From Promethearchaeota archaeon (lineage in GTDB: Archaea > Asgardarchaeota > Lokiarchaeia > Sigyniarchaeales > SOKP01): a DNA stretch of 63,638 nt. The translations under genes and the position numbers were made by a program. The DNA is taken from assembly GCA_013375475.1 (NCBI GenBank), contig JABXKD010000010.1, positions 1 to 63,638 of the forward strand, given 5' to 3'. The notes under the pieces are model-generated. The model saw only the letters and a program-made list of their open reading frames with translations, had not been told where the DNA came from and did not search any database. Within the stretch, counting starts at the first letter, position 1. Each line of letters opens with the position of its first letter. Below are positions 24,621-42,283 of the stretch, piece by piece.

Positions 24621-25877
24621 ATGGTTGAAGCACAAGAAGATTTTATTCAGGAAAGAGAAACAAAAATAATTAAAGGAAATGTGGCTGCAGCTTACGCTGC
24701 GAAATCTGCAAGAGTCCAAGTAATAAGCGCATATCCTATTACTCCTCAAACTACTGTAGTAGAAAAATTATCAGAGTTTGCAGATAATGGTGAGATGCCA
24801 GGAACTCAATATATTAAAGTAGAATCCGAACATTCGGTTATGGCTTCAATAATAGGCGCAAGCACTGCAGGGACTCGCACCTTCACTGCTACTTCGGGAC
24901 AAGGATTATTTTACATGTATGAGATGGTTCATTGGGCAGCAGGTGCGCGATTGCCAATAGTAACTACCATTGCTTCGAGAGGTCCTGCTCCTCCATGGAA
25001 CATTTGGGCAGACTTTACTGATATAATAAGTTGTAGAGATACTGGTTGGATGATTTCATTTGCTTCAAGTCATCAAGAGATCTATGACGATATATTAATG
25101 TCATATAAAATTTGTGAAGATCACGATATTTTATTGCCTAAATTCGTTGCTTATGGCGGATTTACTCTTTCTCATACATCAAAACCTGTAACCATCGAGG
25201 AACAAGACGAAGTTGATGATTTTTTACCGCCACTTCCAGATGAAAAAGGATGGCCTCATATTTTTCTCGATCCTGAAAGACCAATGATGCACGGGAATTT
25301 AATTATGCCATCAGGTTTTTATTACGAATTTAGGTTAAGAATTCATTATACTCATATTATTGCAAAGCAAAAAATCAAGGATGTTGCAGCAGAATTTGAG
25401 AAAAAATTTGGTAGATCATATGGAAATGGATTAATCGAAGAATATAAAATGAAAGATGCGGAAGTTGCTATAATTAATTATGGTGAACTCGCTATGCAGA
25501 TGGAAGACGCGGTTGATGATCTTAGAAATGAAGGATATAAGGTGGGATGTGTTAAATTAAGATATTTACGACCATTTCCTGTAGAAGACATCATACAAAT
25601 TGCTAATAAAGTTAAGGTTCTTGGTGTAGCTGACAGAGCTACTGCGTTTGGATCACCAACTGGAGGGCCTGTAAGTAGTGAAGTGCTGGCAGCTCTATAT
25701 GGTTCGGGAGTAACCACAAAAATTTTACCAATCGTAATGGGTTTAGGTGGTAGAGAAGTAGGATTAGAACAACAGAAGAATCAATTAAAAATATTGAATA
25801 AATTAAATGAAACTGGAGAACTCCCAAAAGATATGATTGAAGGGACTCTCTGGGATGGACTATTGGAGGTTGATTAA
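24621..25877 (+). CDS. porA: Pyruvate/2-oxoacid:ferredoxin oxidoreductase alpha subunit
   Basis: AYPITPQT, ESEHS, TATSGQG, RPFP, GLGGR; ATG 24621 follows the delta-subunit stop. Confidence 0.96.
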   Translation: MVEAQEDFIQERETKIIKGNVAAAYAAKSARVQVISAYPITPQTTVVEKLSEFADNGEMPGTQYIKVESEHSVMASIIGASTAGTRTFTATSGQGLFYMYEMVHWAAGARLPIVTTIASRGPAPPWNIWADFTDIISCRDTGWMISFASSHQEIYDDILMSYKICEDHDILLPKFVAYGGFTLSHTSKPVTIEEQDEVDDFLPPLPDEKGWPHIFLDPERPMMHGNLIMPSGFYYEFRLRIHYTHIIAKQKIKDVAAEFEKKFGRSYGNGLIEEYKMKDAEVAIINYGELAMQMEDAVDDLRNEGYKVGCVKLRYLRPFPVEDIIQIANKVKVLGVADRATAFGSPTGGPVSSEVLAALYGSGVTTKILPIVMGLGGREVGLEQQKNQLKILNKLNETGELPKDMIEGTLWDGLLEVD

Positions 25878-25879
25878 AC

Positions 25880-26818
25880 ATGGTATCTATTAAAGAAGCA
25901 TTAGAAATAGGACAGGAAGAATTTTTTTTAGCTGGAAATTCTACATGTGCTGGATGTGGTCTTGAAATCGCTTTAAGGTGGGCTATGAAAGCACTTGGAC
26001 CTAATACTTCGTTAGTTACACCTGCAAGTTGTTTAAATGTTGTTGTAGGATTATGGCCAAAGACAGCACCAAACTTTCCATTCATGAATATGGCGTTTGC
26101 CGCTGCTGCCGCTGCTGCTACAGGTATCTCAGCAGCCTTTAAAGTAAAAGCTCATAGATTTCCGGGCAAGGTTTGGGAAAAAATGACAACATTAGTTTTT
26201 GCTGGTGATGGGGGAACTACAGATATTGGAATTCAAGGTTTAAGTGGTGCTGCTGAAAGGAACTCTAATATCATATATTGTTGTTACGATAATGAAGCAT
26301 ATATGAACACTGGAATTCAACGATCCTCTAGTACTCCACATGGGGCAATTACAACAACTACCACATTAGGAAAAGAACGATACAAAAAAAATCTACCGAG
26401 AATAATGGCAGCACACGAAATCCCTTATGTTGCTACTTGTTCAGCAAGTGAACCTCTCGATATCTACGAGAAATTTAAAAAAGCAAAAACAATTGATGGC
26501 TGCAAATATATCCACATTTTAGCTTCCTGTCCTCCTGGATGGGGTATTGCATCTGAAGATTCTGTCGAAATCCCTAGATTAGCAGTTAAAACAGGTTCAT
26601 GGATATTATATGAAATCGAAAATGGCGTTTTAACTTTATCAAAAAAGAGTAAATCATTATTAGATCCTACAAAAAGAGCTCCACTAATTGATTACTTATC
26701 TAGACAGAAACGATTTTCAAAGTTATCAGAAAAAGAATTAATTGAACTTCAAGAGAGACTCGATCTTCAATGGTCTAAAATCGCTGATGAAATATCCTGC
26801 CAAGAAAATCATCAGTGA
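25880..26818 (+). CDS. porB: Pyruvate/2-oxoacid:ferredoxin oxidoreductase beta subunit
   Basis: CAGCG, GDGGTTDIG...DNEAYMNTGIQRS TPP-binding motif, CPPGW. Confidence 0.96.
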   Translation: MVSIKEALEIGQEEFFLAGNSTCAGCGLEIALRWAMKALGPNTSLVTPASCLNVVVGLWPKTAPNFPFMNMAFAAAAAAATGISAAFKVKAHRFPGKVWEKMTTLVFAGDGGTTDIGIQGLSGAAERNSNIIYCCYDNEAYMNTGIQRSSSTPHGAITTTTTLGKERYKKNLPRIMAAHEIPYVATCSASEPLDIYEKFKKAKTIDGCKYIHILASCPPGWGIASEDSVEIPRLAVKTGSWILYEIENGVLTLSKKSKSLLDPTKRAPLIDYLSRQKRFSKLSEKELIELQERLDLQWSKIADEISCQENHQ

Positions 26819-26863
26819 AGCCTTTTTTATTACGAAATTAACTTATAATCCAGAGGAATCCAG

Positions 26864-26953
26864 ATGGGTTTTTTAATAAGACTTAAAGGAAAAGAAATTC
26901 AAGATTTAGAATTTTTTCTCGAAATTGCAGTGGAGAATATTATTGAATTTTGA
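26864..26953 (+). pseudogene. sua5: Stranded 5' fragment (29 codons) of a sua5/tsaC gene
   Basis: MGFLIRLKGKEIQDLEFFLEIAVENIIEF* aligns without gaps to residues 1-28 of the Sua5 at 37917 (MGLLLKIAGKKLEDIDVFLEKTVEIINN), 12/28 identical; GAGG SD upstream; directly follows porB. Confidence 0.8.
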
Positions 26954-26969
26954 GGTTTATTTTTGGGGT

Positions 26970-26985
26970 TCATACTTTCGTATAA
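26970..26985 (+). repeat. Left terminal direct repeat TCATACTTTCGTATAA
   Basis: 15/16 identical to 37823-37838. Confidence 0.7.
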
Positions 26986-27009
26986 TATATCAAGATACAT
27001 AGCGGGAAG

Positions 27010-27046
27010 ATTTCGTGGCACATTATTAGGGGTATCGTGGCACGAT
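27010..27046. promoter_or_regulatory. Two TCGTGGCAC motifs, including the palindrome ATCGTG-G-CACGAT; candidate operator
   Basis: ATTTCGTGGCAC at 27010-27021 recurs at 29607-29618; palindrome at 27034-27046. Confidence 0.5.
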
Positions 27047-27181
27047 TGGGAAAAAGCGTGATACGAAACGATTAAATTTTTTTTAATTTTTCGGAATTGT
27101 GCGATTTAAATTCCGATTTTTTTTGAAATAATAATTAACTTTCTATAAGAAAGAGTGAGGAAATAAATAAAAATAATTATT

Positions 27182-29239
27182 TTAAAAAACCTTTTTTTTC
27201 CACTTTGAGTTGAGAACCAAGACAACTGAAACCAAGGAAATTATGCTAATAATTAAAATTATATTATATCCGGAAATTGCTTCTTCAGGTGGAGCAGGTA
27301 TATATTGCCTATATTCATTTTTGATATCATCATAAACCATTTCTCCAGTTTCAAGGTTGATGTTATGAAATGCAACGAAGAAATTGTAGCTAATTACAGC
27401 TCCAGCCGAAATTGAGGCTTCCTCTACAGTAAAGTCAATGTAACCTCTAATTGGACTAATTGAACTTAATCTATAAAGTGGAATTATTTGGTTTGCATCA
27501 GTAGAGCCGTCTAAATATCCAACAGTAACTGCATCTCCAGTTGAATCATCGTATATTGTATAAAAAGGTTTGCTCGCTGAAGCGGCATAATCGTTCCAAC
27601 CAGTCGTGCCCTTAAATGGGACTTCGCCCTGGCCATAAATGAACAATCGATCATTTCTTATTGAATCAGGAAAAAAACCAGCTCCTAGTAATCCTCTGAA
27701 ACTATTTAGGACATTTATTCCATCGTGAATGTGTGAAGGTATCTCATCAATAATAATTTGATTGTTGTCAATGTTCTTAATGTCGGTATGAATCAAAAAG
27801 TAGGATTCATAGCCAGGAGGCAAAACAATTGATGTGTTCCACTGAACTTGATTGCTTGCTGTTTCTCTTAATGTAGAGATACGATAGGAACTCGCAGTAC
27901 CATAGTCTAGGTCGGTCGAGATACTGATATCATATGCATCGTAGCTTTCTGTTCTATCTTGACCGCCACTACTCGCAAAGAAATCACCTTCATCATCTAG
28001 ATCTGGTTCTAATGTAATGGGGGTATCGAATAGATATTGATTAATGGTAGTTACTCGAGAAAAAAGTGCACCTGTAGGAGATTCTAAAATTGAGCTATTC
28101 ATGGAGATCATTATTTCATTATTTGAAAGGACTAAATTATCTGAAAAAATTGGTTTGAAATCAATATCGTCTTCAAAATAATAAGGTATGTCACCGATTC
28201 CATCAAGATTATTATCTACACCTTCGTAATCGTACCAATAATTACCTGTGATTGAATTATTCCAATCATTATTTCCATTGGATAGATGGGCGTTTATCTC
28301 ATTGTTTAAGAAGTAATTTCTATACATTAAATTATTTTGAGTTGCAGCAAATGATGGAGAAAAAATTCCATATTCGTTATCATATAGCTTATTCCCGGTG
28401 AAGTTATTATTATTAGCATTACTTTCTAAGTAGATACCATTTCCACATCTCTCAATAACATTATTAATAATATTATGACCTCTATAAAGACCTGAACTTG
28501 AATTATAAGTTGTAAATATTTGAATTCCATCTTCAGAATTACTAATATAATTATTTGAACAGGTAAGATTAGAAACATAACCTGCCAAATCAATTCCTTC
28601 TCTAGTATTATTTACGATCAAGTTATTTGTAATTATGCTATTTACTATATGTTGGTCACAGTGAATACCACCCCAAATACAATTTTTTATTATATTATTT
28701 GCAACTTTGGAGTTATCACCTGAAAAATAAATACCAACATAACTTTTAAAAATTCTATTTTCTGATATTAAGCAGTTTTCCAACCAAAGAGTATTAATTC
28801 CTACCCATTCGTTATTATACGAAGTATTGTTCGTTATGATTCCATTCTTTATATTAGTTAGTTTAAACGCACCATCTGGACCCCATACCCCTGCAGAATT
28901 ATACACTGTACAGTTTCGGACTATAAAATATTTGGAGCTATCGATAATTTTGATACCATAATCTCCATCTAAGGCATCAATTCTAACATTTTCTATTACA
29001 TAAGGATCCATTTCTGTTCCTGAGCCTGTACACCAATCATAATTAGACTCGTGATATGCCCAATTCCTCGAGCCATCATTATCATCTATAAATATTGGAC
29101 TTCCTGTGAGATCCCAAAAGTCATTACTTTTAAGACCTTCCTCTTCAGAATTAATTTGCACCTTAAATAATGACGAATTAATTGATATCGTGAAAATAAA
29201 AATCATTAGGAGAGATATTAAAGTTTTCTCATATTTCAT
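27182..29239 (-). CDS. Cell-surface NosD/right-handed beta-helix protein with Loki-CTERM-type anchor
   Basis: Signal peptide; GSGTEMDPYVIEN; N-rich beta-helix repeats; GNYWYDYEGVDNNLDGIGDIPY; C-terminal ISGYN + TM helix + KKK. Confidence 0.88.
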   Translation of the reverse strand: MKYEKTLISLLMIFIFTISINSSLFKVQINSEEEGLKSNDFWDLTGSPIFIDDNDGSRNWAYHESNYDWCTGSGTEMDPYVIENVRIDALDGDYGIKIIDSSKYFIVRNCTVYNSAGVWGPDGAFKLTNIKNGIITNNTSYNNEWVGINTLWLENCLISENRIFKSYVGIYFSGDNSKVANNIIKNCIWGGIHCDQHIVNSIITNNLIVNNTREGIDLAGYVSNLTCSNNYISNSEDGIQIFTTYNSSSGLYRGHNIINNVIERCGNGIYLESNANNNNFTGNKLYDNEYGIFSPSFAATQNNLMYRNYFLNNEINAHLSNGNNDWNNSITGNYWYDYEGVDNNLDGIGDIPYYFEDDIDFKPIFSDNLVLSNNEIMISMNSSILESPTGALFSRVTTINQYLFDTPITLEPDLDDEGDFFASSGGQDRTESYDAYDISISTDLDYGTASSYRISTLRETASNQVQWNTSIVLPPGYESYFLIHTDIKNIDNNQIIIDEIPSHIHDGINVLNSFRGLLGAGFFPDSIRNDRLFIYGQGEVPFKGTTGWNDYAASASKPFYTIYDDSTGDAVTVGYLDGSTDANQIIPLYRLSSISPIRGYIDFTVEEASISAGAVISYNFFVAFHNINLETGEMVYDDIKNEYRQYIPAPPEEAISGYNIILIISIISLVSVVLVLNSKWKKKVF

Positions 29240-29605
29240 AGGATCACTTTTTTTCTAAACTAATTGGATTAAAGAGCTATTATTTACTACTAATAAAGAT
29301 CTACTTTTAAATCTTATTGCTTTTACTTTCTTAATCTATTAATTGTTCAGCAAATAAATGTTGGTTTAGAAACTAATACTCATTAAAATCGAGAGAAGAT
29401 GCTACTAGTCACTTTTGAAGCGATCAGAGTTAGGCTATATAAGAATTGGTATTATTAGGAGAAATACATGAGAAATAACGAGAAGCCCTGTTGTATAGAA
29501 TAAGGGTTGGGATTCACAAACACACGACGAATTTAATTACTGGTTAATACTGAAATAGTTTGCGGGCTAATATTGCTATAAGGTATTAAATAATACTACA
29601 AGAAG

Positions 29606-29624
29606 AATTTCGTGGCACGGAATT
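29606..29624. promoter_or_regulatory. Near-perfect palindrome AATTTCGTG-G-CACGGAATT upstream of the RHH gene
   Basis: Same core as the 27010/27034 motifs; ~70 bp before the RHH start. Confidence 0.5.
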
Positions 29625-29695
29625 AAGGTTGGGCATTAAATAGTTGCGTTTAAATAGGTATTTATGGGTAATCGATGGTATGTTAGGAGTGGGCT

Positions 29696-30013
29696 GTGGG
29701 GAGACGGAAGAAATTTGGGGAGGAATCGGGGTTCGTAAACGTTCGGGTGCCGAAAAGTAAGGTTTCGGAGTACCGCGACGCAATTAAGAAGTTAGTTGAC
29801 GAAAAATTTACCCGCGACACAGATAAATTACGCGAAAAAGAGGGGGATAAGGGGAATCTGGGAAAAGAGAGGGTTGTATTTCGCGATTTTCGGGAGTTCG
29901 GGAAAAAAGTAGAAGATAAGGGCGATAATAACACAGACGACGAGGACGATTTCATTGCAGAGATATTTAAAGAAGTAGATAAACACGTGAAGGGCAGAAA
30001 GGACAACGAATAA
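29696..30013 (+). CDS. CopG/ribbon-helix-helix-like DNA-binding protein with acidic tail
   Basis: MGRRKKFGEESGFVNVRVPKSKVSEYRDAIKKLV (beta strand then helix); GTG start with an AGGAG SD. Confidence 0.7.
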   Translation: MGRRKKFGEESGFVNVRVPKSKVSEYRDAIKKLVDEKFTRDTDKLREKEGDKGNLGKERVVFRDFREFGKKVEDKGDNNTDDEDDFIAEIFKEVDKHVKGRKDNE

Positions 30014-30059
30014 TCAGCGCATTTCATGATTTAGGGTTTGGTTTTCATTTTACCGTTAA

Positions 30060-30785
30060 ATGTCAACATTTTTATTTAAGCGAATTTTCTTAGTTCGTAA
30101 AAAAATAAAAGATGTGGCAAAAATGCCTAATTATTGTCGTAATTGTGGCGTCCAACTTAAGAAAAAGAAAGGAAATTGCTCCCATTGTGGAACGCCGTTC
30201 GTTCAAGATCGAAAATTACAAATTCCAAAAAGATATCAACTATCAGAATATTTTTACAAAAAAAGATTTGGTGAACTTCCAGCTAGGGAAAAAGTGTCTA
30301 TAAGAGCATTAAGTAAAAATGAAGATCCATGTTTTCACCTTTTTGAAGCTATGGATTTAATGGATGAAGCCTCAGATTTCCTAATGGATGCCAGAGATCT
30401 CCTAGAAAAAAAGGTTGTATACCTATGGAGAAAAGAAATTGACTTAAAATACGGACTAAACAGCGATAAATTACCTAATTATTGTTCTAATTGTGGATAT
30501 AAAATTACAAACGATTTGATATCGTGTCCTAAATGTGAAGAAGTGTTGGTTTACGAAAAGCTTGAGTACGAAAAAGCAATTGGATACATTCAAAAAGCGA
30601 TTGATATAGATCCTACTAATGGAGACATAAAACTCATTTTAGAATGTGCTCAAAGAGTACTAGAAGAGCAAAATGATCCGAAGAACGCTCGAGATCATTT
30701 AAATATGACTTATAAGCCTTACCGTTCCTTGCTAAATCGTTACATCTCAAGATATGAAGAAATTCGAGCTTATCTTGGAATATAA
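30060..30785 (+). CDS. Double zinc-ribbon protein with TPR-like C-terminus (start may be ATG 30123)
   Basis: PNYCRNCG..CSHCG and PNYCSNCG..CPKC; YEKAIGYIQKAIDIDP TPR-like helix. Confidence 0.75.
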   Translation: MSTFLFKRIFLVRKKIKDVAKMPNYCRNCGVQLKKKKGNCSHCGTPFVQDRKLQIPKRYQLSEYFYKKRFGELPAREKVSIRALSKNEDPCFHLFEAMDLMDEASDFLMDARDLLEKKVVYLWRKEIDLKYGLNSDKLPNYCSNCGYKITNDLISCPKCEEVLVYEKLEYEKAIGYIQKAIDIDPTNGDIKLILECAQRVLEEQNDPKNARDHLNMTYKPYRSLLNRYISRYEEIRAYLGI

Positions 30786-30805
30786 ACCTCAATAAATATG
30801 GTATT

Positions 30806-30833
30806 GCAAGGAAACCCCTTCGGTTTCCTTCGC
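30806..30833. terminator. GC-rich hairpin between convergent genes
   Basis: AAGGAAACC-CCTTC-GGTTTCCTT, 9-bp perfect stem. Confidence 0.55.
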
Positions 30834-30992
30834 GAACCATCCCGCTCATTTTCAAAGGGTGCTCGGTTGTATCGCTCCTAAAGCTCGCTTCACAACTGTC
30901 GCTCCTTTTAAAATTCGGCAAACAATCTAATAATTGCACGGTAGGCGTCCAGTACTCGTTTTTTAGTATTCCGAACCAATTTTTTTTGGTCG

Positions 30993-31526
30993 TCATCCAT
31001 ATGTTTTCGAATAAGATTCTATCAAAATTTCTGTAAGGACTGTGAAAGTCTTCTCTACATTTTGCCCAGTTTTAGACGACAGTTCGGTATATGCAGAGAG
31101 ATTATACTTTTTCGCTATTGCAATTCCTTCTTCTTTTGAAACCTCTCGAGATTTTTCTAAATCTAGTTTATTGCCTATTAAAATAATGGGAATTTCTCCT
31201 GACTGTTCTCGAATAATTTGAGTCCAATCTGGCAAATGGTCTAACGATTGACGATTAGTTATATCGTACATAATAATAGCTCCATTTTTCCCTTTACAAT
31301 ATTGATGTAAGAGGAATCTGAATCGTTCTTCCCCTCCAAAGACCCAAAATTGCAATTTAACCTTCTTTCCTATACATTCTTGAGTTTTGGTATAAAAATC
31401 CACCCCAATTGTCAATTTAGATTCGTCTAGAAAGAACGGAGAGATATAGCGATGGACAAATTCCTCTTTTCCACTCGATGGGTCCCCTAACAATAGAACT
31501 GTAAAAGTAAAATCATAACTCGCCAT
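30993..31526 (-). CDS. Rab-like small GTPase with degenerate G1/G3 motifs
   Basis: TIGVDF, KLQFW, ERFR, YDITN, GNKLDL, SSKTGQNV; G1 reads GDPSSGKE, G3 reads WVFGG. Confidence 0.92.
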   Translation of the reverse strand: MASYDFTFTVLLLGDPSSGKEEFVHRYISPFFLDESKLTIGVDFYTKTQECIGKKVKLQFWVFGGEERFRFLLHQYCKGKNGAIIMYDITNRQSLDHLPDWTQIIREQSGEIPIILIGNKLDLEKSREVSKEEGIAIAKKYNLSAYTELSSKTGQNVEKTFTVLTEILIESYSKTYG

Positions 31527-31776
31527 TTTTTTAGGTAAAAAAATCTAATTAGTATTAACAAAAAAGTCTAAGTATAAAAATATGATAGTGTTCCAAATAA
31601 TCTATCTATTCCTATTCGTACTTTTTAATCGTTCGCATTCCCCGCTTACGTCTTAGTAGACAATATATCATTACGATATGAAAATGTTATCGGAGTGGAG
31701 AGGACTGGAATTTCTGCTTAAAAGGGTTATACTTAAGAAGAATATGGGCTTAGGTAGAAAAACAGTAATCGGTATT

Positions 31777-31846
31777 GACGCTTCGCTTAGAGCGTGGCTT
31801 GGCGTCCTACTGCCCCTTCGGAGCGGACGCACCCGAGTCGCCACGG
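31777..31846. other. GC-rich nested stem-loop (candidate single-strand origin or structured RNA)
   Basis: CGTGGC(31793)/GCCACG(31840) and GCGTCC/GGACGC stems enclosing CTTCGG; contains GCTTCGCTTA. Confidence 0.5.
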
Positions 31847-31903
31847 TGGGAGTGCATTTTTCCGAGAGTACATCTACGGATAATTGAATTATAATTTTAA
31901 ATA

Positions 31904-33127
31904 TTAAAATGTAAGAATTCCTATTTGATTTTCAATGATATAAGTTACTTGCTCCTTTGTCAATTCTCCATTCCATATCTTTAAAAGAGCATTATACAAT
32001 TCCAGAGTTGATAATAAGCCCCACTCTTGAGATTCGGATTTCTTTATGACTGTTTTATCAAAAAAACTCCCTCTCTCTTCTGGTTTTTTGTTTCTATATG
32101 CATTACAAATGAAGATTTGCTTAATCCTTTTCATACTTTCTTCTTCTTTTTCTTTTTCTAACTCCTCAGCATGCCATTTATACATTTGGCTTATGTTTTT
32201 TTCATGAGCAATCTTCTCTAACCCTTTGATTTCTGCTAGTATTTTAGTATTTTCTGTTTCGCAGAATAAATCTGTACGATCTACTGTTCGCCTTATGTTT
32301 TGGAAGCCTAAAAAAGAGAAAATTTTAGAAATAGTTTTTTCCAATGGTTTATCGTATCCATATAACAAGATTTCATACGATTCTATTCTTTTTATCTTCT
32401 CATTAATTTCTAGGGATTCCTCAACCAAACTTTTTTTATCAAAACGATCATAATCCTTTAACCACTTAGGTTTTTTAATTGCTAAATCAAAACCTCGTTT
32501 GTACAACTCGAGCTCAAATTTATCAATATTTGCTAAGCATGTTTCTATAAAATCTCGTTTTAAAGTAGGTTGCGGTAAGAAAATTAAAAAATTCTTTTCT
32601 AATCTAACAATTAATGATATTATATTTCCTTTTTTGTTTTTAGCTAATACATAGGAATCGCTTGGTAAATCCTTTGGTTGAATAGCCCACTTCCAATGAT
32701 ACGGTTGATTTTTTTCGTTAAAAAGTAACTTAGAGAGGTTATATTTGGGATTAGTCATAACAATTTTATTTCCTTTTGTAATTATTGAAGGAGGTATACC
32801 GCTCCATAAACTAGATATTATATCAGAAGTCTCTTCTTTTCTTTGATGTGCTTGTGTTATCACAGAATCAATTTTTGAAGCAAAAATGAATTTTATTTGC
32901 GCTAATTCTCCAGAAATCAATTTTCGTAAAGCATTTGTCTGATCGTAATCAAATCTATGGTAGTCCTCGAAATCAATAAAGAATACATCGTAATCTTCAA
33001 AGTTATAAGTTTGAAATCTATTCCAATTTGTTATATCAATTCTAGTTTCCTTAGGAGTTTTTATTGGATTTTCTTTTTTTTTATCATTTATATTGTCATC
33101 TATAATTAAACAATTTGTCTTATTCAT
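31904..33127 (-). CDS. Hypothetical protein with C-terminal PD-(D/E)xK restriction-endonuclease-like domain
   Basis: LEKTISKIFSFLGF...TDLF...LAEIKG...ISQ pattern typical of Mrr/REase folds. Confidence 0.65.
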   Translation of the reverse strand: MNKTNCLIIDDNINDKKKENPIKTPKETRIDITNWNRFQTYNFEDYDVFFIDFEDYHRFDYDQTNALRKLISGELAQIKFIFASKIDSVITQAHQRKEETSDIISSLWSGIPPSIITKGNKIVMTNPKYNLSKLLFNEKNQPYHWKWAIQPKDLPSDSYVLAKNKKGNIISLIVRLEKNFLIFLPQPTLKRDFIETCLANIDKFELELYKRGFDLAIKKPKWLKDYDRFDKKSLVEESLEINEKIKRIESYEILLYGYDKPLEKTISKIFSFLGFQNIRRTVDRTDLFCETENTKILAEIKGLEKIAHEKNISQMYKWHAEELEKEKEEESMKRIKQIFICNAYRNKKPEERGSFFDKTVIKKSESQEWGLLSTLELYNALLKIWNGELTKEQVTYIIENQIGILTF

Positions 33128-33239
33128 GTTTATCTTAATCCTGAATGGTTAATTTCCATAATAATAATTTTTCTTTCTTTCAATTTTATCATTGACTTAT
33201 AATAATTGCGATTTTCCTTTTATAGACTTTGGAATGTTT

Positions 33240-34073
33240 TTAAGGGTATATTAATTTAAATTTTTTTGTTAGATTATCATTTTCCATAAATGGTATTAGC
33301 TTAAAAATATTATAAACAAAATTCTTTATCACAGAATTATCATCAGTATCTTTTATAACATCAAAATTATTTAAAAGAGTCTTAATTTCCAGTAAATTTT
33401 TTTCGTTCAGATAATCAATCAGCCCAAGATTTTTATTATTATTACTTTTTCTAAGAATTACATTTTCTAAATTAGTTAATGCCTCCTCAATATTAATTTG
33501 TAATTGTCCTTTTTCTTCGTTTTTCAAAATATAACGACAACTAATATAGAATTTTAAAAATCCTCCGAGAAGTTCATAAAATTCATGATTTGTATCTATA
33601 CCTTTCATTCCGTTCATAATTTCTTTTATGTAATCAACATATGATACATAAATCTCTGTAAAATTTGAAAGGTTATAGTCAACAAAACAATCTATTAAGT
33701 GATTTGAATAATAGAACACTTTTTCTATTTGGTCACTAATAGAAGCTTCAGGTTGTTGTGCAAAATGAATATAATCTGTTTTTTTATAGATAAAAATGTG
33801 CCCTAATTCGTGAATTAATTCATAAATAGGGTGATAATGATTATACTCAATTTTCCAATGATTATTTTCCTTTAAAGTTGCACTTGAATTATTGTGAATC
33901 ACTTCTAATCTTATATCTTTATCAGATAGTAATAAAAGCCTCTGAAATGAATCCATTTTGCGTTCCAGATTTGAAATGCAATTATTACATATTTCTCCGT
34001 GATTAAAATATTGATCAATTGAAAGTTGATTATTGCAATAATTACACCTATAAATTCTTCCAAAAATCGGCAT
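33240..34073 (-). CDS. Zn-finger plus HExxH zincin metallopeptidase-like protein (ImmA/IrrE-like)
   Basis: CNYC..CNNC N-terminus; LIHELGHI; downstream N.LIDCFVD. Confidence 0.6.
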   Translation of the reverse strand: MPIFGRIYRCNYCNNQLSIDQYFNHGEICNNCISNLERKMDSFQRLLLLSDKDIRLEVIHNNSSATLKENNHWKIEYNHYHPIYELIHELGHIFIYKKTDYIHFAQQPEASISDQIEKVFYYSNHLIDCFVDYNLSNFTEIYVSYVDYIKEIMNGMKGIDTNHEFYELLGGFLKFYISCRYILKNEEKGQLQINIEEALTNLENVILRKSNNNKNLGLIDYLNEKNLLEIKTLLNNFDVIKDTDDNSVIKNFVYNIFKLIPFMENDNLTKKFKLIYP

Positions 34074-34328
34074 TTTTCCAGTTTTTAACTAATAATATTT
34101 TTGCCTTTATCTATAATAAATGCAATTTATATATATCTTTTTCCTCTATTCATTACAATAATCATTATCTCCCTCACCCGTGGTACCCTCTTCTAAAAAA
34201 GTAAGTTAGAATAAATCCTTCCCTTGCTTACGGCACTACTCGATTTTGTGATTTTCATCACAGTCAATATTGTTTCCGTGAGGATTTGTCTTTTCAATTC
34301 ATCCATTACATCTAGAAAAATTAGTATT

Positions 34329-34400
34329 TAGCTTCGCTTACGCTTCGCTATCGCGACCTTGCTCCGCTTCGCTTCGCAACCATCAAGGGCTAACGGGTCG
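34329..34400. repeat. GCTTC(GC) tandem-repeat/hairpin cluster upstream of rep; candidate origin
   Basis: GCTTCGCTTACGCTTCGCTA...GCTCCGCTTCGCTTCGCAA; CGACC/GGTCG stem. Confidence 0.55.
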
Positions 34401-34747
34401 TTCCAAGTCTGTTGATCTTTTTTTGAGAGCATTAAATCATCTTACCATTATTTTATTCCTGAGTTAAAGAAAAAATTTGAATTTCGTAGTCTTTTTTGGG
34501 ATCGATTTTTTTGGAGCGAATGAACTCGATTGGGATACTAAAGTAGTATTGGTCTCCTTTCTTGGTTGGGCGCTTAATGATGGTCGTTATTTTTTTGTTC
34601 TCCATGATAGTAATAGAAACAATTATAGTATATATATCTTTTTCTGTTATACGAAAAATTATAGGTCTCTTAGGATATATAACTAGGATTATCTGTTATA
34701 TTAACTATAATACTTTTAATAACAGATATCGAGATGATGAAAAAAAA

Positions 34748-35914
34748 ATGTCAATTAAGTTTGGAAGAGCGCACGGGAACGGGTATCACGACAGCGTGGT
34801 GCGGAAGATAACCGTGAAACTCCCTAAAGCGTCTTACGATCGCATAGAGTACGAAATAAGTCAGATAGAGCAAAACGGGGATGTAATTCACGAACGAGAG
34901 TATCACCAATCGTTCATTAAAAGAATCTGCATTAGGTGTCCAATTAGTTATAAGGACGGAAAGCGGGAATACATGGAGAAGCGGGGAGATTTGTTCGTGT
35001 GTTCTCATTGCGGACTAATTAAAGTACCCAAGGGTATAGAATACGATGCTAACGAAGATACTTGTTTTATTCAGGGTTCTTCGACTCGAGCGAGAGATTT
35101 AAACGATCGATTGAATAAATTCAAAGAAAAAGCGCTGAAAGAAGGCGTCAAAGTAGGTAAAATTAAGCACATCGCTTTTAGTCCAACTAAAGCTCTAATA
35201 GAAGAAATTTTAACCAACTACAATTCTTATCTCAAGTTTAGAAAGGAAATCGTGATTAGCACTATTTTAGAAGAATCTGGGTTGTTTGCAGGAGTTTTAA
35301 TTTTCGATTTATGGTCAAAACAATGTAAAATTTGCGGGAAAAAAGAACACGAATGTTCGTGCAATGAAAAGGATTTAGAACGGGTGATCAGTCCTCACTT
35401 TCATTACATTGGATACGGCTACATTCTCCACACCAACGACTTTCGCGAAAAGTTTAAAGATTGGGTATACGTGAATTTCGGTAGCAGAGACGACGCGTAC
35501 CACACGATTTTCTACGCTCTAACGCACTGCGCGATGTGGAGAAAAGAAAACGGAAAGCTAAAACCCGCCTACGAGTTCGCGGGATTCTTACGACCTAAGC
35601 ACTTAGAACCGATACACGCGGTAACGAAATATATCCCGCACACCTGTAAAGTTTGTAAACAACCGACCAGAAGAATTATGAGCGGGCTCACAAGAGTAGG
35701 GAAATTTCCTCATGCGATTCAAGTTCACATTTCAGAGGGCGAATTAAAGCTCGGGAGCGAGATACGATATAAAGCGCTCGTTAGAAGTTATCGAATTTGT
35801 CATATTGAACTATTAAGGGATGTTGTTGAGATTAATAAGATTCGCTACGAAAAATACAAGCGAAAAAGGAAGAAAAATGAAGTAATCGAAAAAAAGGGAA
35901 GCGGATATGGTTAA
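34748..35914 (+). CDS. Rolling-circle replication initiator, HUH endonuclease (archaeal SNJ1-RepA-like/IS91-related type) with Zn-binding motifs
   Basis: Motif I HIAFSP, motif II SPHFHYIG, motif III YALTH; CxxC pairs; ATG 34748 preferred over TTG 34562 (upstream is AT-rich and noncoding-like). Confidence 0.82.
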   Translation: MSIKFGRAHGNGYHDSVVRKITVKLPKASYDRIEYEISQIEQNGDVIHEREYHQSFIKRICIRCPISYKDGKREYMEKRGDLFVCSHCGLIKVPKGIEYDANEDTCFIQGSSTRARDLNDRLNKFKEKALKEGVKVGKIKHIAFSPTKALIEEILTNYNSYLKFRKEIVISTILEESGLFAGVLIFDLWSKQCKICGKKEHECSCNEKDLERVISPHFHYIGYGYILHTNDFREKFKDWVYVNFGSRDDAYHTIFYALTHCAMWRKENGKLKPAYEFAGFLRPKHLEPIHAVTKYIPHTCKVCKQPTRRIMSGLTRVGKFPHAIQVHISEGELKLGSEIRYKALVRSYRICHIELLRDVVEINKIRYEKYKRKRKKNEVIEKKGSGYG

Positions 35915-36119
35915 AATGAATATTTATATATTATTTCTAATAAAAAAGTAAACTTTCACTTTAAGCAAGATAAATCGGTGAACTGCAATTTTAGAGAAAA
36001 TCCTTTCTCTCTCATCGGTTAAAATAAATTAATGATTTGATAATTAAATTAATTAATCTTAATTTTGAGTAATCTAGTTAATAAGAATTTTATAATGTGA
36101 AGATTAAATTTTACTAATT

Positions 36120-36944
36120 ATGGATACTGCTAACATTCGTTCTTACAATACGACTCTAAAGAAAATGATTAGTTTAGCCAAAAACCTTGCGAAAAACGAA
36201 ATTCCTATAATTTACGAGTTAGGTCACTACCTTGCTGATAATGTAATATCTAAAGTATGTATGGTTGTGCTTGCACGAAACAATCGACCTGATTTAATAT
36301 TTGAAAATGAAAAAGATGGTCGAACTTATGACTTTCCAATATTGTATAAAAATATGCGACGAGAATTCTTTCCGAATTTAGAAAAGTATGAGAAGATCGT
36401 TAAGGATTTTCATATTGAAAGGGGTATTTACCAACATAGATTTGAATCGTTAAAACAAACCTTCAGGCAATCAGAAGCAGAAAAATATGTTGATTTCGTA
36501 ATAAATACTATGAGAAAGACTGGAATTTTAGGTACAAAAGAACTAATACCATATGTAAGTTTATTGAGTGAACCTACAACCGTTAAGAATTATGAAATCA
36601 GAATCAAACAAGATGCATATCAAGAATTATATAATTTATTGATTGATCCTGAAAAAAAGAATATAATAATTGCCTTAAAGAACAAATTAGATTTCAGGTT
36701 AAAGCGTTATTTAAAAGAAGATCTAATAATGGAAGAACATAGTTCCTATGGTTATACGACTATCCATAACTCTGAATGGTCGATAGATGGATTTTCTCAA
36801 AGATTTTCAATTGTAGATAAAACAAATAATGAAACTTTTTCTTACAATCAACCGACTACAAATAAACATGTCTTAGAAGAATTTCTAAAATATTTCAAAG
36901 GTTGTTTGAAAGAGCAAGGAATAAACATAAAAGATTTTAACTAA
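36120..36944 (+). CDS. Hypothetical protein with N-terminal HEPN-like domain
   Basis: Helical domain with an Rx4H motif (FHIE-RGIYQH). Confidence 0.5.
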   Translation: MDTANIRSYNTTLKKMISLAKNLAKNEIPIIYELGHYLADNVISKVCMVVLARNNRPDLIFENEKDGRTYDFPILYKNMRREFFPNLEKYEKIVKDFHIERGIYQHRFESLKQTFRQSEAEKYVDFVINTMRKTGILGTKELIPYVSLLSEPTTVKNYEIRIKQDAYQELYNLLIDPEKKNIIIALKNKLDFRLKRYLKEDLIMEEHSSYGYTTIHNSEWSIDGFSQRFSIVDKTNNETFSYNQPTTNKHVLEEFLKYFKGCLKEQGINIKDFN

Positions 36945-37603
36945 ATATCTACATCATTAAGAAGATCCGAATTTACATCATCAAAATACCCGTTTTCAGC
37001 AATAATTTTTACTGTGGATTCAATATCAATAAATTTATAATACTCTGCAATTTTTTTGAAAGTAAAAACAATATATTTTCCAACAGTGTCGTTTGATTTC
37101 TTTATGTACTCTAGGTTATGGTCAATATCTATCCCGATCACCTTATCTATTAAAGCCATATCGGGATGTTTATTACATTCTATATAAGCTTCATCTATTT
37201 TACCCATATTATGAGCGATAACATTCCTTCTACAAATACATTCTCTTAATTCTTCCCATATTTTAAATTCGTTCTCAAAATTGATTTGAAAATTAGCATC
37301 GAAGAATTTCAATATTTTTAAAGGGGTTGTCTTAAAATTTTTCCTTATTAAGTTCTTTTCCTCATTTAATTCATTAAAAAATTCTCGATTGAAAGTTTCA
37401 AATATAGTTATACTATAAATGTGAACTATTTTCAAAAAGAGAGAGTTTTGACCTGGAATAAAAGAATTCATGACCTCTTTCCAGACTCCTTCTACGCTCT
37501 GATCTTCAATTAGACTTATCATTTGATCAATAAAAAATTCTAAATCTATTGTTTGCTTAATAAATTCTAAAAAGATTACAGAAAGCTTTTCTTCAAATTC
37601 CAT
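36941..37603 (-). CDS. HEPN-domain putative RNase
   Basis: ICRRNVIAHNMGKID: canonical RNx3H HEPN motif; upstream SITIFE helix. Confidence 0.75.
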   Translation of the reverse strand: MEFEEKLSVIFLEFIKQTIDLEFFIDQMISLIEDQSVEGVWKEVMNSFIPGQNSLFLKIVHIYSITIFETFNREFFNELNEEKNLIRKNFKTTPLKILKFFDANFQINFENEFKIWEELRECICRRNVIAHNMGKIDEAYIECNKHPDMALIDKVIGIDIDHNLEYIKKSNDTVGKYIVFTFKKIAEYYKFIDIESTVKIIAENGYFDDVNSDLLNDVDI

Positions 37604-37822
37604 AAAGAAACAATTATAAATTAAGTCTATTTAGAGGAAAATAGGAAACAAAGATATAAAAATAAAACACATGAATATTTATATTTAATAATTTATATTT
37701 AAAGAAAAAATGATCTAAAACGATTTATTACTGTATCTAAACTCACTATAAAAAAAAATATAGTGTTTAAATTATCTGTTCTTTATTGATAGATAAAACA
37801 GCAAAAGGAAAAAGAGTAAGTC

Positions 37823-37838
37823 TCACACTTTCGTATAA
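37823..37838 (+). repeat. Right terminal direct repeat TCACACTTTCGTATAA
   Basis: 15/16 identical to 26970-26985. Confidence 0.7.
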
Positions 37839-37916
37839 AACCACACAGATTTTTCCAACGAATAGAAAAAAAATTTAGAGGAATTTTTTTATCTTAATCA
37901 GTATTTTCTAGATTAT

Positions 37917-38585
37917 ATGGGATTACTACTGAAAATTGCGGGCAAGAAATTGGAAGACATCGATGTGTTTCTCGAAAAAACGGTCGAAATTATAAACAAC
38001 GGAGGTCTGATAGCTTTTCCGACTAATTCAGTTTACGGTCTAGGAGGAAATCCACTCAATCTTGAAGTAGTAAATAGAATTTACGATATCAAGTATCGAG
38101 ATCGATCAAAAGGACTATTGCTATTAGTCGCCGATACTGAAGAAGCAGAAAAGATTGCGGAATTTAACAAAATAAGTTATAAGCTAGCTGAACGCTTCTG
38201 GCCAGGTCAATTGACTTTAATATTAGCAAGAAAAGAACCCAACATAATTCCTCCGGAAGTTACGGCTTTTAAAAATACGATTGGTATCCGCGTACCGGAA
38301 AACGAGATCATCCTAACGATTTTAAAAAAATTAAAAGCAAAAGGATATTTTGGTGGAATTATTGGAACATCAGCTAACTATTCTGGGGAACCTCCATCGA
38401 TAAGTGGGGACGAAGTAGCGAAAAAATTTTTAACGCCGATCGATTTAATACTTGATGGGGGAAAAACTAAAACAAAAGTTCCCACAACAATCCTTGATTG
38501 TACCTCAAAAGAATTAAGGTTTTTGCGGATTGGGATCGTAAAAGAAGAGGATATCGAAAATTTAATTGAATCAATTAAAGAATAA
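37917..38585 (+). CDS. sua5: Threonylcarbamoyl-AMP synthase Sua5/TsaC (YrdC domain only)
   Basis: AFPTNSVYGLG, KYR...K, FWPGQLT, GIRVP, TSANYSG. Confidence 0.96.
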   Translation: MGLLLKIAGKKLEDIDVFLEKTVEIINNGGLIAFPTNSVYGLGGNPLNLEVVNRIYDIKYRDRSKGLLLLVADTEEAEKIAEFNKISYKLAERFWPGQLTLILARKEPNIIPPEVTAFKNTIGIRVPENEIILTILKKLKAKGYFGGIIGTSANYSGEPPSISGDEVAKKFLTPIDLILDGGKTKTKVPTTILDCTSKELRFLRIGIVKEEDIENLIESIKE

Positions 38586-40555: not shown

Positions 40556-41431
40556 CTATTGATTTTCCTCTTTTAATTTTGGATTTTTACTTGCTAAATA
40601 ATTGTCTAAAAAAGTAACTATTTCATTTTCTCTTATGACTTCTTTAGGGACGGACACTCCTATTTTCTGAAGTTCTTGTTTGAATAGATATATTTGTGGC
40701 ATAATTAATGAGGATTTTGAAATTAAAAACTCATTAGTAAAAATATTCTGTGTTGGACCATCCGCAATAATATGTCCTCCGCTCATCAAGATTGTTCTTG
40801 GAACATGTTCTGCTGTAAACTCTATATTATGCGTTACCATTATTATTGTTTTTCCCCTTTTTAACTCGCCCTTTATTAATCCTAGTAAGAAATTTATTTC
40901 TTTTGCATCTTGACCTAAGGTCGGTTCATCAAAAACTAGAATATCAGGGTCACGACAAAGAACTGAAGCTATAGCTAATTTTTTTGATTCACCTCCCGAT
41001 AAGTTTAATGGGGATCTTTTACGATATTTTTCGAGGTCAAATTCTTCTAATACCTGATCAATTTTTATTTGAATTTCTTCTTTATTTAAATTTAGATTTT
41101 TCAAGGAAAATTTAATTTCATCCTCTAATGTATTAGAAAATAGTTGATGCATAGGATTTTGGAAGATAACTCCAACTTTTTTAGATATTGTAGCTATAGA
41201 TTTTGAATCGATATTTTCTCCATCTACATAAACGCTTCCTTTTGTAGGTCGGATTAAACCATTAAAAGTTCTAATTAAAGTCGTTTTTCCGGCGCCGTTC
41301 TGACCCATAATTGCTAAAAATTCACCGTGATTAATATTTAAAGAAATCTGATTTAAGGCTACAGTTCCATTTGAATACACATAATCAACATCGTTTACTA
41401 TTATTAAAGGGAACGAATTTTTATCCTTCAT
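40556..41431 (-). CDS. ecfA: ECF transporter ATPase
   Basis: GQNGAGKT, FQNP, LSGGE, FDEPT. Confidence 0.93.
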   Translation of the reverse strand: MKDKNSFPLIIVNDVDYVYSNGTVALNQISLNINHGEFLAIMGQNGAGKTTLIRTFNGLIRPTKGSVYVDGENIDSKSIATISKKVGVIFQNPMHQLFSNTLEDEIKFSLKNLNLNKEEIQIKIDQVLEEFDLEKYRKRSPLNLSGGESKKLAIASVLCRDPDILVFDEPTLGQDAKEINFLLGLIKGELKRGKTIIMVTHNIEFTAEHVPRTILMSGGHIIADGPTQNIFTNEFLISKSSLIMPQIYLFKQELQKIGVSVPKEVIRENEIVTFLDNYLASKNPKLKEENQ

Positions 41432-41443
41432 GACTATTTTGGG

Positions 41444-42283
41444 TTATTTAATCGTTTTTAATATACTTATGGCTTCTTGAATTGAAGCAGGAATATCATA
41501 TTGAAATCGATCTCTATTTTTTAATTCATTGAAGATTGAATATATTTTTGGTTTATTAATATTCAAATTCTCAAATGTGTTAGAATTTATAACCTTCTCC
41601 TTAGCACCATGAGATATAATCTCACTTTCCTTCATTAAAATTATTTCATCTACTAATGGAAGAATTAAATCCATTCGGTGTTCGCTAATTATGATTGTTA
41701 TTTTTTTTTGTACTTGAATTTTTTTTAATAGGTTTAAAATCTTCTTTGCAAATAATGGGTCCAAGTTTGCTGTTGGTTCGTCCAATACAATTACTTTAGG
41801 TTCTAGCACTAAAATTGAAGCAATAGCAACACGTTGTTGCTCACCACCACTTATCTCAAAAGGGGCTTTATCTAAAATACTTTCAATTTCAGTTATTTCT
41901 ACAACTTCTTTAATTTTTTCTTTTATCCTTTCCCTTGGAGTTCCTAAATTCTCCAAACCAAAAGCTATCTCATGTTCTACATTCATTGCAATCAATTGGT
42001 TCTCAGGATTTTGAAATACAATACCAACGTCATTAGATAATTGGGATATTGTTGTTTCAATAGTGTTCTTTCCTGAAATCTCTACATTTCCTTTATAAAA
42101 ACCAGCATAAAATTGGGGTATTAATCCGTTCATACATCTAATTAATGTAGTTTTCCCAGAACCCGTCTCCCCAGCTAATAAAATAAATCTATTGGAATCT
42201 AGTTCCAAATTAATATTTTTGAGCGCGTACTCGTCGTTTCCTTTATAGCGAAAATAAAAATTATTAAATTTAATTAAGCTCAT
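41444..42283 (-). CDS. ecfA: ECF transporter ATPase
   Basis: GETGSGKT, FQNPENQ, ISGGEQQR, LDEPT. Confidence 0.93.
   Translation of the reverse strand: MSLIKFNNFYFRYKGNDEYALKNINLELDSNRFILLAGETGSGKTTLIRCMNGLIPQFYAGFYKGNVEISGKNTIETTISQLSNDVGIVFQNPENQLIAMNVEHEIAFGLENLGTPRERIKEKIKEVVEITEIESILDKAPFEISGGEQQRVAIASILVLEPKVIVLDEPTANLDPLFAKKILNLLKKIQVQKKITIIISEHRMDLILPLVDEIILMKESEIISHGAKEKVINSNTFENLNINKPKIYSIFNELKNRDRFQYDIPASIQEAISILKTIK

Follow-up and report, generated by a model that had tools for sequence, protein, structure and literature searches.

We analyzed a 63.6-kb stretch of DNA (hereafter the window) that makes up the whole of contig C11 in a lokiarchaeial genome of 3.92 Mb (288 contigs, 6.4% contamination; G000, hereafter the own genome). 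Eleven substantial open reading frames (ORFs) lie in the window between porB, the last gene of a four-gene pyruvate:ferredoxin oxidoreductase cluster (ending at 26818; Pfam POR_N, PFOR_II and TPP_enzyme_C), and sua5 (37917-38585, + strand; Pfam Sua5_yciO_yrdC, E 3.8e-51). The region between these genes is occupied by an insert of 11,067 nt (26947-38013), hereafter the island, which encodes a predicted HUH-type rolling-circle replication initiator (Rep), is bounded by a short direct repeat and carries a set of accessory genes. A preliminary description, made from the sequence alone, had taken this region for an integrase-less rolling-circle element of an Asgard archaeon. Comparison genomes are denoted below by G-numbers and sequence loci by L-numbers, the latter including 18 metagenomic contigs that encode Rep.

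The borders of the island were set by blastn comparison with G014, the closest relative, and by empty joints in the contigs of 4 public metagenome runs from 2 studies (contigs drop rare forms). G014 aligns at 98% nucleotide identity to positions 25782-26946 of the window and again to 38014-38434, with 14 nt in place of the insert, and the corresponding empty joint (26946>38014), with the identical 14 letters, was found on contigs of the 4 runs. In run X1, a possible source sample, the depth of the island contigs was 17.3, versus 33.4 for the empty joint and 37-51 for the flanking contigs. Given these depths and the empty joint, island-bearing and island-free chromosomes therefore coexist, and the insert is a true, population-polymorphic insertion. 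The empty allele is not an excision product, because the native start of sua5 is present there and is no longer in place on the island allele. An inserted stretch between porB and sua5, given as ~10.9 kb of non-housekeeping genes in the preliminary description, was thus confirmed by G014 and the empty allele, with its borders corrected to 26947-38013; the start proposed at 26864 had to be abandoned, since positions 26864-26946 are the orphaned native start of sua5. Another joint, 27068>29621/2, was considered as a deletion variant and rejected, because it belongs to a paralogous element on contig C25 of the own genome.

Across the genus, porB and sua5 are separated by 44-158 nt in 30 of 41 genomes, judging from match coordinates; 8 of the 41 could not be judged owing to contig ends or missing genes, and insertions at this site were found in three, namely the own genome, G008 (8.4 kb) and G034 (1.6 kb). 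The insertion in G034 (G034:C10:60600-62950; L016) is a lone gene for a 483-aa amidase (Pfam Amidase, 2.8e-111), located at a site equivalent to window position 26906, with a 43-nt duplicate of the sua5 start on its left and lacking the 12-nt repeat core described below. G148, which belongs to another genus, carries a 3.3-kb insertion between porB and sua5 as well. The porB-sua5 site is a hotspot in its own right.

At this site, sua5 has been split and rebuilt. To the left of the island stands an orphaned 5' fragment of the native gene (26864-26946, + strand), the 83 nt of which are identical, in register, to nt 1-83 of the G014 sua5, after which the two sequences go out of register; homology to G014 stops at 26946. 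The right end of the island consists of an imported flank (37839-38013, + strand) made up of a leader of 78 nt followed by 97 nt of foreign sequence that form the beginning of sua5, so that the functional sua5 (37917-38585) is chimeric, with native sequence from 38014 onward. Between the imported and native starts, 50 of 83 nt and 12 of 27 residues are identical. A start of the imported kind, here called R-type, is also present, together with the leader, in the related G008 island. Outside the genus, it is closest to the sua5 of G148 (from g18, a different genus in the family; identical at 69 of 97 nt, with a recognisably similar leader), and two further genomes of the same genus as G148 carry an ordinary-type start. 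From the foreign start and leader it follows that the insert came with ~175 nt of a foreign sua5 locus on its right end. The imported start would keep the essential gene intact.

The ORF that contains Rep (34748-35914, + strand) encodes 388 aa and is single-copy in the own genome. Its HUH core (35057-35914, residues 104-388) is 86% identical to residues 84-368 of the canonical metagenomic Rep P0002. Twelve close relatives of the ORF were found in a set of 5.8 billion proteins, and a profile search returned 613 relatives at E<=1e-3. Among 118 aligned relatives, C88, H217, H219 and Y256 are invariant, and H141, S145 and H260 are nearly so; the three motifs on which the preliminary description had based its HUH assignment fall in these columns (H141, H217/H219 and Y256/H260), in agreement with that assignment. 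The P-H217-F-H219 motif is invariant in both the 13- and the 118-sequence alignments and is located on a strand of the structural model (E210-224), and Y256, on model helix H251-260, is the candidate catalytic tyrosine. When compared with RepA of the haloarchaeal virus SNJ1, a comparison named in the preliminary description, the Rep profile aligned with an hhalign probability of 99.0 (E 4.4e-18) over 193 columns, which cover the zinc cluster, HxxxSPP, PH(F/V)H and YxLSH. The SNJ1 record annotates repA as a rolling-circle initiator, and SNJ1 RepA is cited as homologous to IS91 transposases in the passages of PMC6563490 that treat such initiators. Furthermore, 6 of the 118 Rep relatives gave weak matches to Zn_Tnp_IS91 (best E 1.2e-4). 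These sequence comparisons identify the protein as a rolling-circle initiator of the HUH type with homology to SNJ1 RepA, and place it in the known family of SNJ1 RepA-like, IS91-related HUH initiators.

Database and structure searches with Rep were less specific. Pfam, PHROGs, PADLOC and NCBIfam assigned it to no family. In the Atlas, the nearest named clusters were Rep_1, Zn_Tnp_IS91 and REP_ORF2-G2P, and the structural rows included an IS91 transposase (Y2_Tnp) cluster (TM 0.53) and microvirus/P2 Reps, all below the naming bar; in a VIA search, 13 of the top 30 rows were Rep, NS1 or Helitron nuclease domains (Z 4.0-5.2). Pfam Y2_Tnp (PF04986) matched neither the window Rep nor any of the 118 relatives, and a genome search with PF04986 gave no match in the own genome, a negative that carries no information because the control was positive in 0 of 14 genomes. 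No match to the canonical Rep P0009 was obtained by tblastn in a phage collection (to E 10) or a plasmid collection (to E 1). Distant relatives were found in contigs of Methanoperedens, Methanolliviera, Bathyarchaeia and Nitrosopumilaceae. Rep has a patchy distribution, in keeping with a mobile element, being present in 4 of 36 other genus genomes sampled and in none of 24 genomes of other genera of the order and class. Two other leads were set aside: the PDB sequence matches of the Rep queries (a chance match at E 1 and a coronavirus papain-like protease zinc finger at E 0.006) were taken as spurious, and Rep-Arvir (PMC13107129) was rejected as a match, since the passages describing it give a TBP-like, Rep_trans-related fold, not HUH.

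The Rep copy in the window is a fusion. Canonical Rep relatives match only residues 104-388 of the ORF, and residues 1-103 are not homologous to the N-termini of these proteins. The fused segment (34748-35056, + strand), denoted X, is instead 67% identical over 101 aa to a stand-alone 109-aa zinc-ribbon protein (L036_7038_7367), the gene for which is found in G034:C69, divergent beside a copy of gene G (see below); the G008 island keeps just the first 23 residues of the X protein. An N-terminal Cys/His zinc domain is present in the Rep family consensus and aligns with SNJ1 RepA. This canonical, IS91-like N-terminus is absent from every frame of the window, where tblastn with P0002 matched residues 84-368 only. 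The HUH core is intact in the fused ORF. Because Rep lost its N-terminal zinc domain through in-frame fusion, the element in the window is probably non-autonomous; alternatively, the fused Rep may be a functional domain swap. Of the Rep ORF as originally delineated, the core thus proved homologous to SNJ1 RepA, and its first part (34748-35056) belongs to an unrelated small protein.

No integration gene accompanies Rep. In line with the preliminary description, none of the 10 main ORFs of the island matched a recombinase, transposase or capsid family in scans of Pfam, PHROGs, NCBIfam and PADLOC. In addition, the tyrosine recombinase family PF00589 had no match in the islands of G000:C11, G008:C4, G016:C65 and G020:C14, with the control positive in 14 of 14 genomes; a single PF00589 match in the own genome is distant, on contig C55.

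The direct repeat that had been noted as a 15/16 match is located at 26970-26985 and 37823-37838 (both + strand). The left copy, a 16-mer, contains a 12-nt core (26974-26985) that recurs exactly in the right copy (37827-37838). By itself the 15/16 repeat is unremarkable, ranking outside the top 20 of a repeat search on the window, and the 12-nt core occurs 5 times in the own genome versus ~2 expected from base composition, by a rough estimate. The repeat is nonetheless real, because the core is kept across islands, the left-end sequence that starts with it is invariant, and it is linked to Rep. The same core, in the same orientation, bounds further islands: it flanks the G008:C4 island exactly, and copies of it flank the G016:C65 island (15.5 kb apart), the G020:C14 island (28.5 kb apart, 1 mismatch) and an element in G014:C188 (2.9 kb apart, 1 mismatch), an orthologous copy of which lies on C25 of the own genome. 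Where the islands hold Rep, the repeats are always in Rep orientation. The core also begins a left-end 25-mer (26974-26998, + strand) that was found in 11 copies in 8 of 42 genus genomes, all with 0 mismatches, whereas the reversed control pattern was found in 0. It is followed by an iteron-like, origin-like array (27010-27070, + strand) of three repeats, two ..TCGTGGCAC and one ..GCGTGATAC, and a second iteron type occupies the equivalent position in the G016 and G020 islands. Judging from sequence, this arrangement of core and 25-mer followed by three iterons has the layout of a replication origin.

The collected neighbourhoods of the Rep homologues link the core to the gene. In 11 of the 18 metagenomic Rep contigs, rep is followed on its own strand, at a distance of 10 nt to 2.9 kb, by the core (<=1 mismatch); the matches number 12 in total, whereas 200 shuffles gave 2.99 on average and at most 9. 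The repeat is thus a conserved cis element whose position and strand are linked to those of Rep. Near the distant Rep relatives of Methanoperedens, Bathyarchaeia and Nitrosopumilaceae (9 loci), the core was not found, there being only scattered matches with 1-2 mismatches. A 7-nt match on the bottom strand at 26988-26998 to the nick-site consensus of the pC194/phiX group was given no weight, since this strand would direct replication away from rep and a 7-mer match is at chance level.

The right ends of the related islands consist of the core alone, abutting host genes; the host ATG is 4 nt away in G016 and 1 nt away in G020. In G016 and in L051, the core is followed by ~57 nt resembling the C-terminal part of a gene encoding a CxxCxxCC protein (denoted T), which is fused in frame to a DUF6786 gene. 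The fusion point between the T piece and the DUF6786 gene is a host sequence resembling the core; in L054 and L057, this same DUF6786 host site is preceded by the core at a distance of 5-6 nt. Both in G014 and in the own genome, the 2.9-kb element interrupts gene T itself; clean empty sites were found in 7 genomes. This Rep-less element (L035, G014:C188, 6989-9881; own C25:1-1251) carries an intact, diverged copy of T, the gene that it splits. A second island hotspot lies between the genes for an AAA ATPase and an M20 peptidase, a gap that measures 131 nt to 28.6 kb over 24 genus genomes and contains the invariant left end in four (G020:C14:2754-31352 and orthologous loci; C214:29068-29225 in the own genome); in the own genome, the empty counterpart of the G020 island site is too diverged to align.

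As read from these sequences, a pattern recurs in which the island now carries DNA that formerly lay beyond a right end, namely the sua5 start in the window and the piece of T in G016 and L051. Rolling-circle terminator read-through, as in IS91/ISCR and Helitrons, would explain this pattern directly. Homologous recombination explains the T-DUF6786 fusion less well than the sua5 case. Together with the Ras-like GTPase described below, these fragments agree with the earlier suggestion that the element moves host-type genes, since the islands do carry along both genes of host type and pieces of host genes.

On balance, and by a narrow judgment, we consider it probable that the islands form a family of Rep-dependent elements, either IS91/Helitron-like or integrative-plasmid-like, and that the copy in the window is probably crippled. 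The region 26947-38013 would then be a member of a repeat-bounded island family in this lokiarchaeial genus, with a mobility or replication module made up of the SNJ1-RepA-like (IS91-related) HUH rolling-circle endonuclease and its cognate site, the 12-nt repeat. Rep would bind the iterons and nick at the left-end repeat, synthesis would proceed in the direction of the rep gene and be resolved at the right repeat, and the unit would be released or transferred. Where the right repeat was missed, downstream host DNA would be taken along, as in IS91/ISCR and Helitrons; in the window this DNA would be the leader and 97 nt of the sua5 of another genus, and in G016 the ~57 nt of the CxxCxxCC gene. 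We infer rolling-circle transposition on these grounds. A more specific proposal, namely an integrase-less rolling-circle family of Asgard archaea in which the SNJ1-RepA/IS91-type endonuclease both replicates the elements and inserts them at its own 12-nt site, with right-end read-through moving host DNA between loci and even genera, is put forward tentatively, as a possibility that we regard as doubtful in its full form.

Several observations weigh against Rep-driven mobility. The 11 left ends are confined to four loci in the 42 genomes (sua5, T, the AAA ATPase-M20 peptidase gap and DUF6786), a confinement more in keeping with islands restricted to certain sites than with a transposon that jumps freely, and Rep is present in only 3 of the 11 islands with the invariant left end. 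The empty sua5 allele and the 7 empty sites in the CxxCxxCC gene lack the 12-nt core, so that the Rep model does not account for how two full repeats arise. No significant hairpin was detected at either end (six folds, z -0.2 to -1.7). The circular junction at the repeat that had been anticipated was not seen: terminal overlaps occurred in 0 of the 18 metagenome contigs, and the joints of the contigs from the four runs included no circular back-joint, which is no evidence of absence because contigs drop rare forms. The evidence for an RRM/ferredoxin-like Rep fold is weak when taken alone, with a model pLDDT of 58 overall (70-86 in the core), a Thg1-like protein as the best VIA row (Z 5.5) and an empty Foldseek result at E<=0.001, and an IMG/VR scan yielded 99 pattern stretches and 0 Rep relatives. 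The fusion and the missing canonical zinc domain would make the autonomy of the window copy doubtful. Furthermore, the swap of the sua5 start, being in frame and position-true, is more simply explained by homologous recombination within sua5. The left junction (26932-26969) was bridged by none of the listed contig pieces from the 4 runs, and its backing comes solely from the independent G008 assembly, which has the same architecture. The original proposal of an integrase-less Asgard rolling-circle element is thus retained as regards the insertion, the HUH Rep, the lack of an integrase and the conserved repeat, and is qualified by the doubtful autonomy, the circle not seen and the small number of loci.

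These points can be read in other ways. A pair of identical short direct repeats, one at each end, is the classic mark of att sites, and only 4 loci were used, repeatedly, in 42 genomes, as would be the case for an integrative plasmid-like element that is inserted by a recombinase acting in trans (host Xer-like or unrecognised), with the repeat as the att core and Rep merely replicating the excised circle. Integrase-type elements supply replacement gene ends when they insert in protein genes, for example those of phage 21 and e14 at icd, and the island likewise supplies one to sua5. The own genome contains one Xer-like gene (on C55), and an integrated element bearing a rolling-circle replication initiator is known in Thaumarchaeota from the relevant passages of PMC6563490. 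We nevertheless rate a trans-acting recombinase as unlikely: 4 of 4 islands have no integrase, the empty sites lack the core that an att site would be expected to leave, there is no PF00589 match anywhere in G020 or G014 (both incomplete genomes), and the position and strand of the core follow those of Rep in 11 of 18 metagenomic loci, as would be expected of a Rep site more than of an Xer site.

The islands could also be no discrete mobile elements but the product of a variable defence-island hotspot, assembled bit by bit as strains and genera exchanged DNA by recombination, both homologous and homology-facilitated illegitimate, in which Rep would be an old plasmid wreck and the repeat and 25-mer regulatory or promoter-like. 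The sua5 swap, in frame, position-true and accompanied by a 14-nt loss, fits homologous recombination anchored on one side at least as well as terminator read-through, and the unrelated, repeat-less insertions at porB-sua5 (the G034 amidase and the 3.3 kb in G148), the size range of the AAA ATPase-M20 peptidase gap, the mosaic islands with conserved intergenic modules and differing genes between them, the fused Rep and the G+C of the island, which is like that of the rest of the window, all point the same way. Such a mosaic would hardly account for 11 identical copies of the 25-mer flanked by genes that differ by 5-33%, for repeat pairs that bound islands precisely, including the 2.9-kb one with clean empty sites in 7 genomes, or for a repeat that follows Rep in unrelated metagenomic contexts, and we judge it improbable. 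Finally, a plasmid or strain contig could have been joined chimerically into the chromosome during assembly, given that the metagenome assembly is fragmented and contaminated to the extent stated above and that unitigs break at the left junction. The independent genome G008 shares both junctions, a 6.8-kb contig in X1 runs from the island side across the right junction (38013/38014), and the depths add up (17.3 + 33.4 vs 51), all of which makes an artefact highly improbable.

The islands differ from each of the known systems that they resemble. SNJ1 RepA, from a haloarchaeal virus of the Simuloviridae, and the island Rep have in common the zinc cluster (at the level of the Rep family), HxxxSPP, PH(F/V)H and YxLSH, and in both cases small MazE/AbrB-type genes are found near rep. 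However, SNJ1, a virus of 16.5 kb, has capsid genes and is maintained as a plasmid, whereas the island is chromosomal and repeat-bounded, with no capsid genes found, and its Rep copy lacks the N-terminal zinc domain. Members of the IS91 family are compact, encode only a transposase with two catalytic tyrosines, have ori and ter ends and insert at a tetranucleotide target. With IS91/ISCR the islands share a related HUH enzyme with an N-terminal zinc domain (the Zn_Tnp_IS91 and Atlas matches given above), unlike ends, the lack of an integrase, host DNA carried past one end and, at one host target, insertion beside a short, end-like sequence; they differ in having no Y2_Tnp match, one invariant tyrosine, a size of 3-28 kb, many cargo genes, 12-nt direct repeats at both ends and few loci. 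Like those of Helitrons, their putative initiation and termination ends differ and flanks are captured downstream of the 3' end, and VIA matched Rep to a Helitron transposase nuclease domain (Z 4.9); unlike Helitrons, they have a Rep without a fused Pif1-like helicase (388 aa), no 3' hairpin and a prokaryotic host. The element is not an IS91 (no Y2_Tnp match, one invariant tyrosine, large cargo), not a Helitron (no helicase) and not a provirus (no capsid genes), nor is it an integrase-type island.

Among integrated archaeal elements, NitAQ6f-E2 of Thaumarchaeota is similar in encoding an SNJ1-type rolling-circle initiator, according to the part of PMC6563490 that describes it; the third search strategy in that paper, in its passages on methods, relied on the genome context around tyrosine integrase genes, whereas the islands described here have no integrase. 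Distant relatives of the window Rep are found in Nitrosopumilaceae contigs. Aloposons and the elements of Atabeyarchaeia, as portrayed in passages of PMC11529989, are similarly cargo-carrying chromosomal islands that are polymorphic in populations; they differ in that some of the Atabeyarchaeia elements have integration machinery with tyrosine-like integrases, and the aloposons cited there are cargo-carrying transposons. By the same passages, aloposons were the only non-viral integrated elements previously reported for Asgard archaea, and the main text of PMC11529989 contains 0 occurrences of 'rolling' or 'HUH'. The relevant sections of the Asgard literature searched describe integrase-bearing islands, aloposons, viruses and one plasmid. 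No rolling-circle element of Asgard archaea was found in this literature search, which had supplementary tables outside its scope, consistent with the earlier remark that the element is possibly undescribed.

Knowledge of non-viral mobile DNA in Asgard archaea is scant. Should the joining be the work of Rep, the islands would represent a new way of building archaeal genomic islands, and host genes, among them those for defence proteins and eukaryote-signature GTPases, would be exchanged along this route both inside a lokiarchaeial genus and from one such genus to another. If capture by read-through is true, it would be a prokaryotic counterpart of Helitron gene capture, acting on eukaryote-signature genes and rebuilding the starts of essential genes that are hit. 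Should Rep instead be no more than a relic, what remains is a defence-island hotspot that has been mapped in detail. The pairing of a defined cis site (12-nt core, 25-mer and iterons) with a defined protein makes the idea directly testable in vitro, and a vector for these organisms, in which genetic manipulation is difficult, could be developed from the Rep/origin pair.

With regard to cargo, we infer from the FokI-like nuclease and the HEPN proteins described below that the content of the island is of the defence-island type, to which a surface protein and a Ras-like GTPase are added, so that the cargo as a whole would be accessory and mostly defence-like. The 685-aa surface protein (27182-29239, - strand) is a NosD-type right-handed beta-helix protein with a C-terminal membrane anchor (Pfam NosD 1.6e-21, Beta_helix 5.5e-19), in accordance with the preliminary description, which was also correct in recognizing a Rab-like gene: D (30993-31526, - strand) encodes a Ras/Rab-like small GTPase (Pfam Ras E 2.6e-42). 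Paralogues of D at 66-81% nucleotide identity occur in most genus genomes, including one at 81% on C244 of the own genome. Gene E (31904-33127, - strand) encodes a 407-aa protein for which the AF2 model (pLDDT 85) predicts a flavodoxin/GATase1-like N-terminal domain and a C-terminal, FokI-like PD-(D/E)xK nuclease domain, the latter agreeing with the PD-(D/E)xK protein noted earlier; in a Foldseek search, the model matched the cleavage domains of FokI (E 6.5e-5) and Nt.BspD6I (2.2e-4). The family comprises 21 unannotated homologues with no Pfam assignment. On the basis of this model, E is a candidate for a new defence or restriction protein. That E might be a recombinase was ruled out by the two modelled domains.

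Two further proteins contain the Rx4H motif, as the preliminary description had stated. J (220 aa; 36941-37603, - strand) is HEPN-like, with weak PADLOC matches to RTasHEPN (5e-4) and Csx1/Csm6 HEPN (5e-3), and I (274 aa; 36120-36944, + strand) is HEPN-like by motif only, with no family match. Gene I travels with Rep in G016; its product is 67% identical to L008_7558_8376, and a paralogue at 34% was also found. The sister islands carry HNH, PD-(D/E)xK-like and several Rx4H proteins. Of the ribbon-helix-helix and HExxH proteins reported previously, the former, B (105 aa; 29696-30013, + strand), was recognized as such by eye, and the latter, F (277 aa; 33240-34073, - strand), has an N-terminal zinc ribbon and an HExxH motif, both on a motif basis; B has no family match, and for F there was no significant family in Pfam, PHROGs, PADLOC or NCBIfam and nothing usable from the Atlas. 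Gene B is common to 4 islands, with homologues (DNA or ORF) in G008:C4, the C25 element of the own genome and G014:C188. Gene C (30060-30785, + strand) encodes a 241-aa protein with two zinc ribbons and a TPR-like end (Pfam DZR 2.2e-7 and other zinc-ribbon families).

The 50-aa protein G (34453-34605, - strand) is AbrB/SpoVT-like by eye, with no Pfam match. Gene G is present in 5 islands, with 50-aa ORFs 66-88% identical in L037, L008, L036 and L017. Together with its upstream region to 34746 (82-83% nucleotide identity in G016 and G020), G adjoins different downstream genes in the five islands, in the manner of a portable regulatory cassette.

Four GC-rich non-coding modules, 83-96% identical across the islands of different species, sit at the joints between cargo genes. 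The first (29473-29642), upstream of B, is 85-95% identical in G008:C4, G014:C188 and C25 of the own genome, and contains an extra iteron at 29609. The second (30804-30917), 83-93% identical in 3 other islands, includes the GC-rich hairpin seen previously, now placed at 30810-30828. The third (31771-31861) is conserved and adjoins the second in G020, and the fourth (34306-34420), beside G, is 91-93% identical in G008:C4, G016:C65 and G020:C14. Because the D family is host-wide and the two GC-rich modules that flank D abut in G020, the Ras-like GTPase gene looks like a host gene that was slotted in. For two of the GC-rich modules, 0 and 3 compensatory pairs were counted from 5 and 4 sequences, respectively; the sequences are near-invariant and offer little variation for covariation.

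The G+C content of the island region (0.24-0.38) is the same as elsewhere in the window. An Rfam search gave nothing in the island at E<=1 and only tRNAs elsewhere in the window. Downstream of sua5, two neighbouring paralogous ABC ATPase genes (35% identity) and an adjoining membrane component (40556-42283, - strand) resemble an ordinary ECF/CbiO-type transporter. Two of the Rfam tRNA calls, at 54108-54208 and 54240-54300 (+ strand; 46.9 and 31.8 bits), are missing from the ARAGORN output; the first, at 101 nt, possibly bears an intron.

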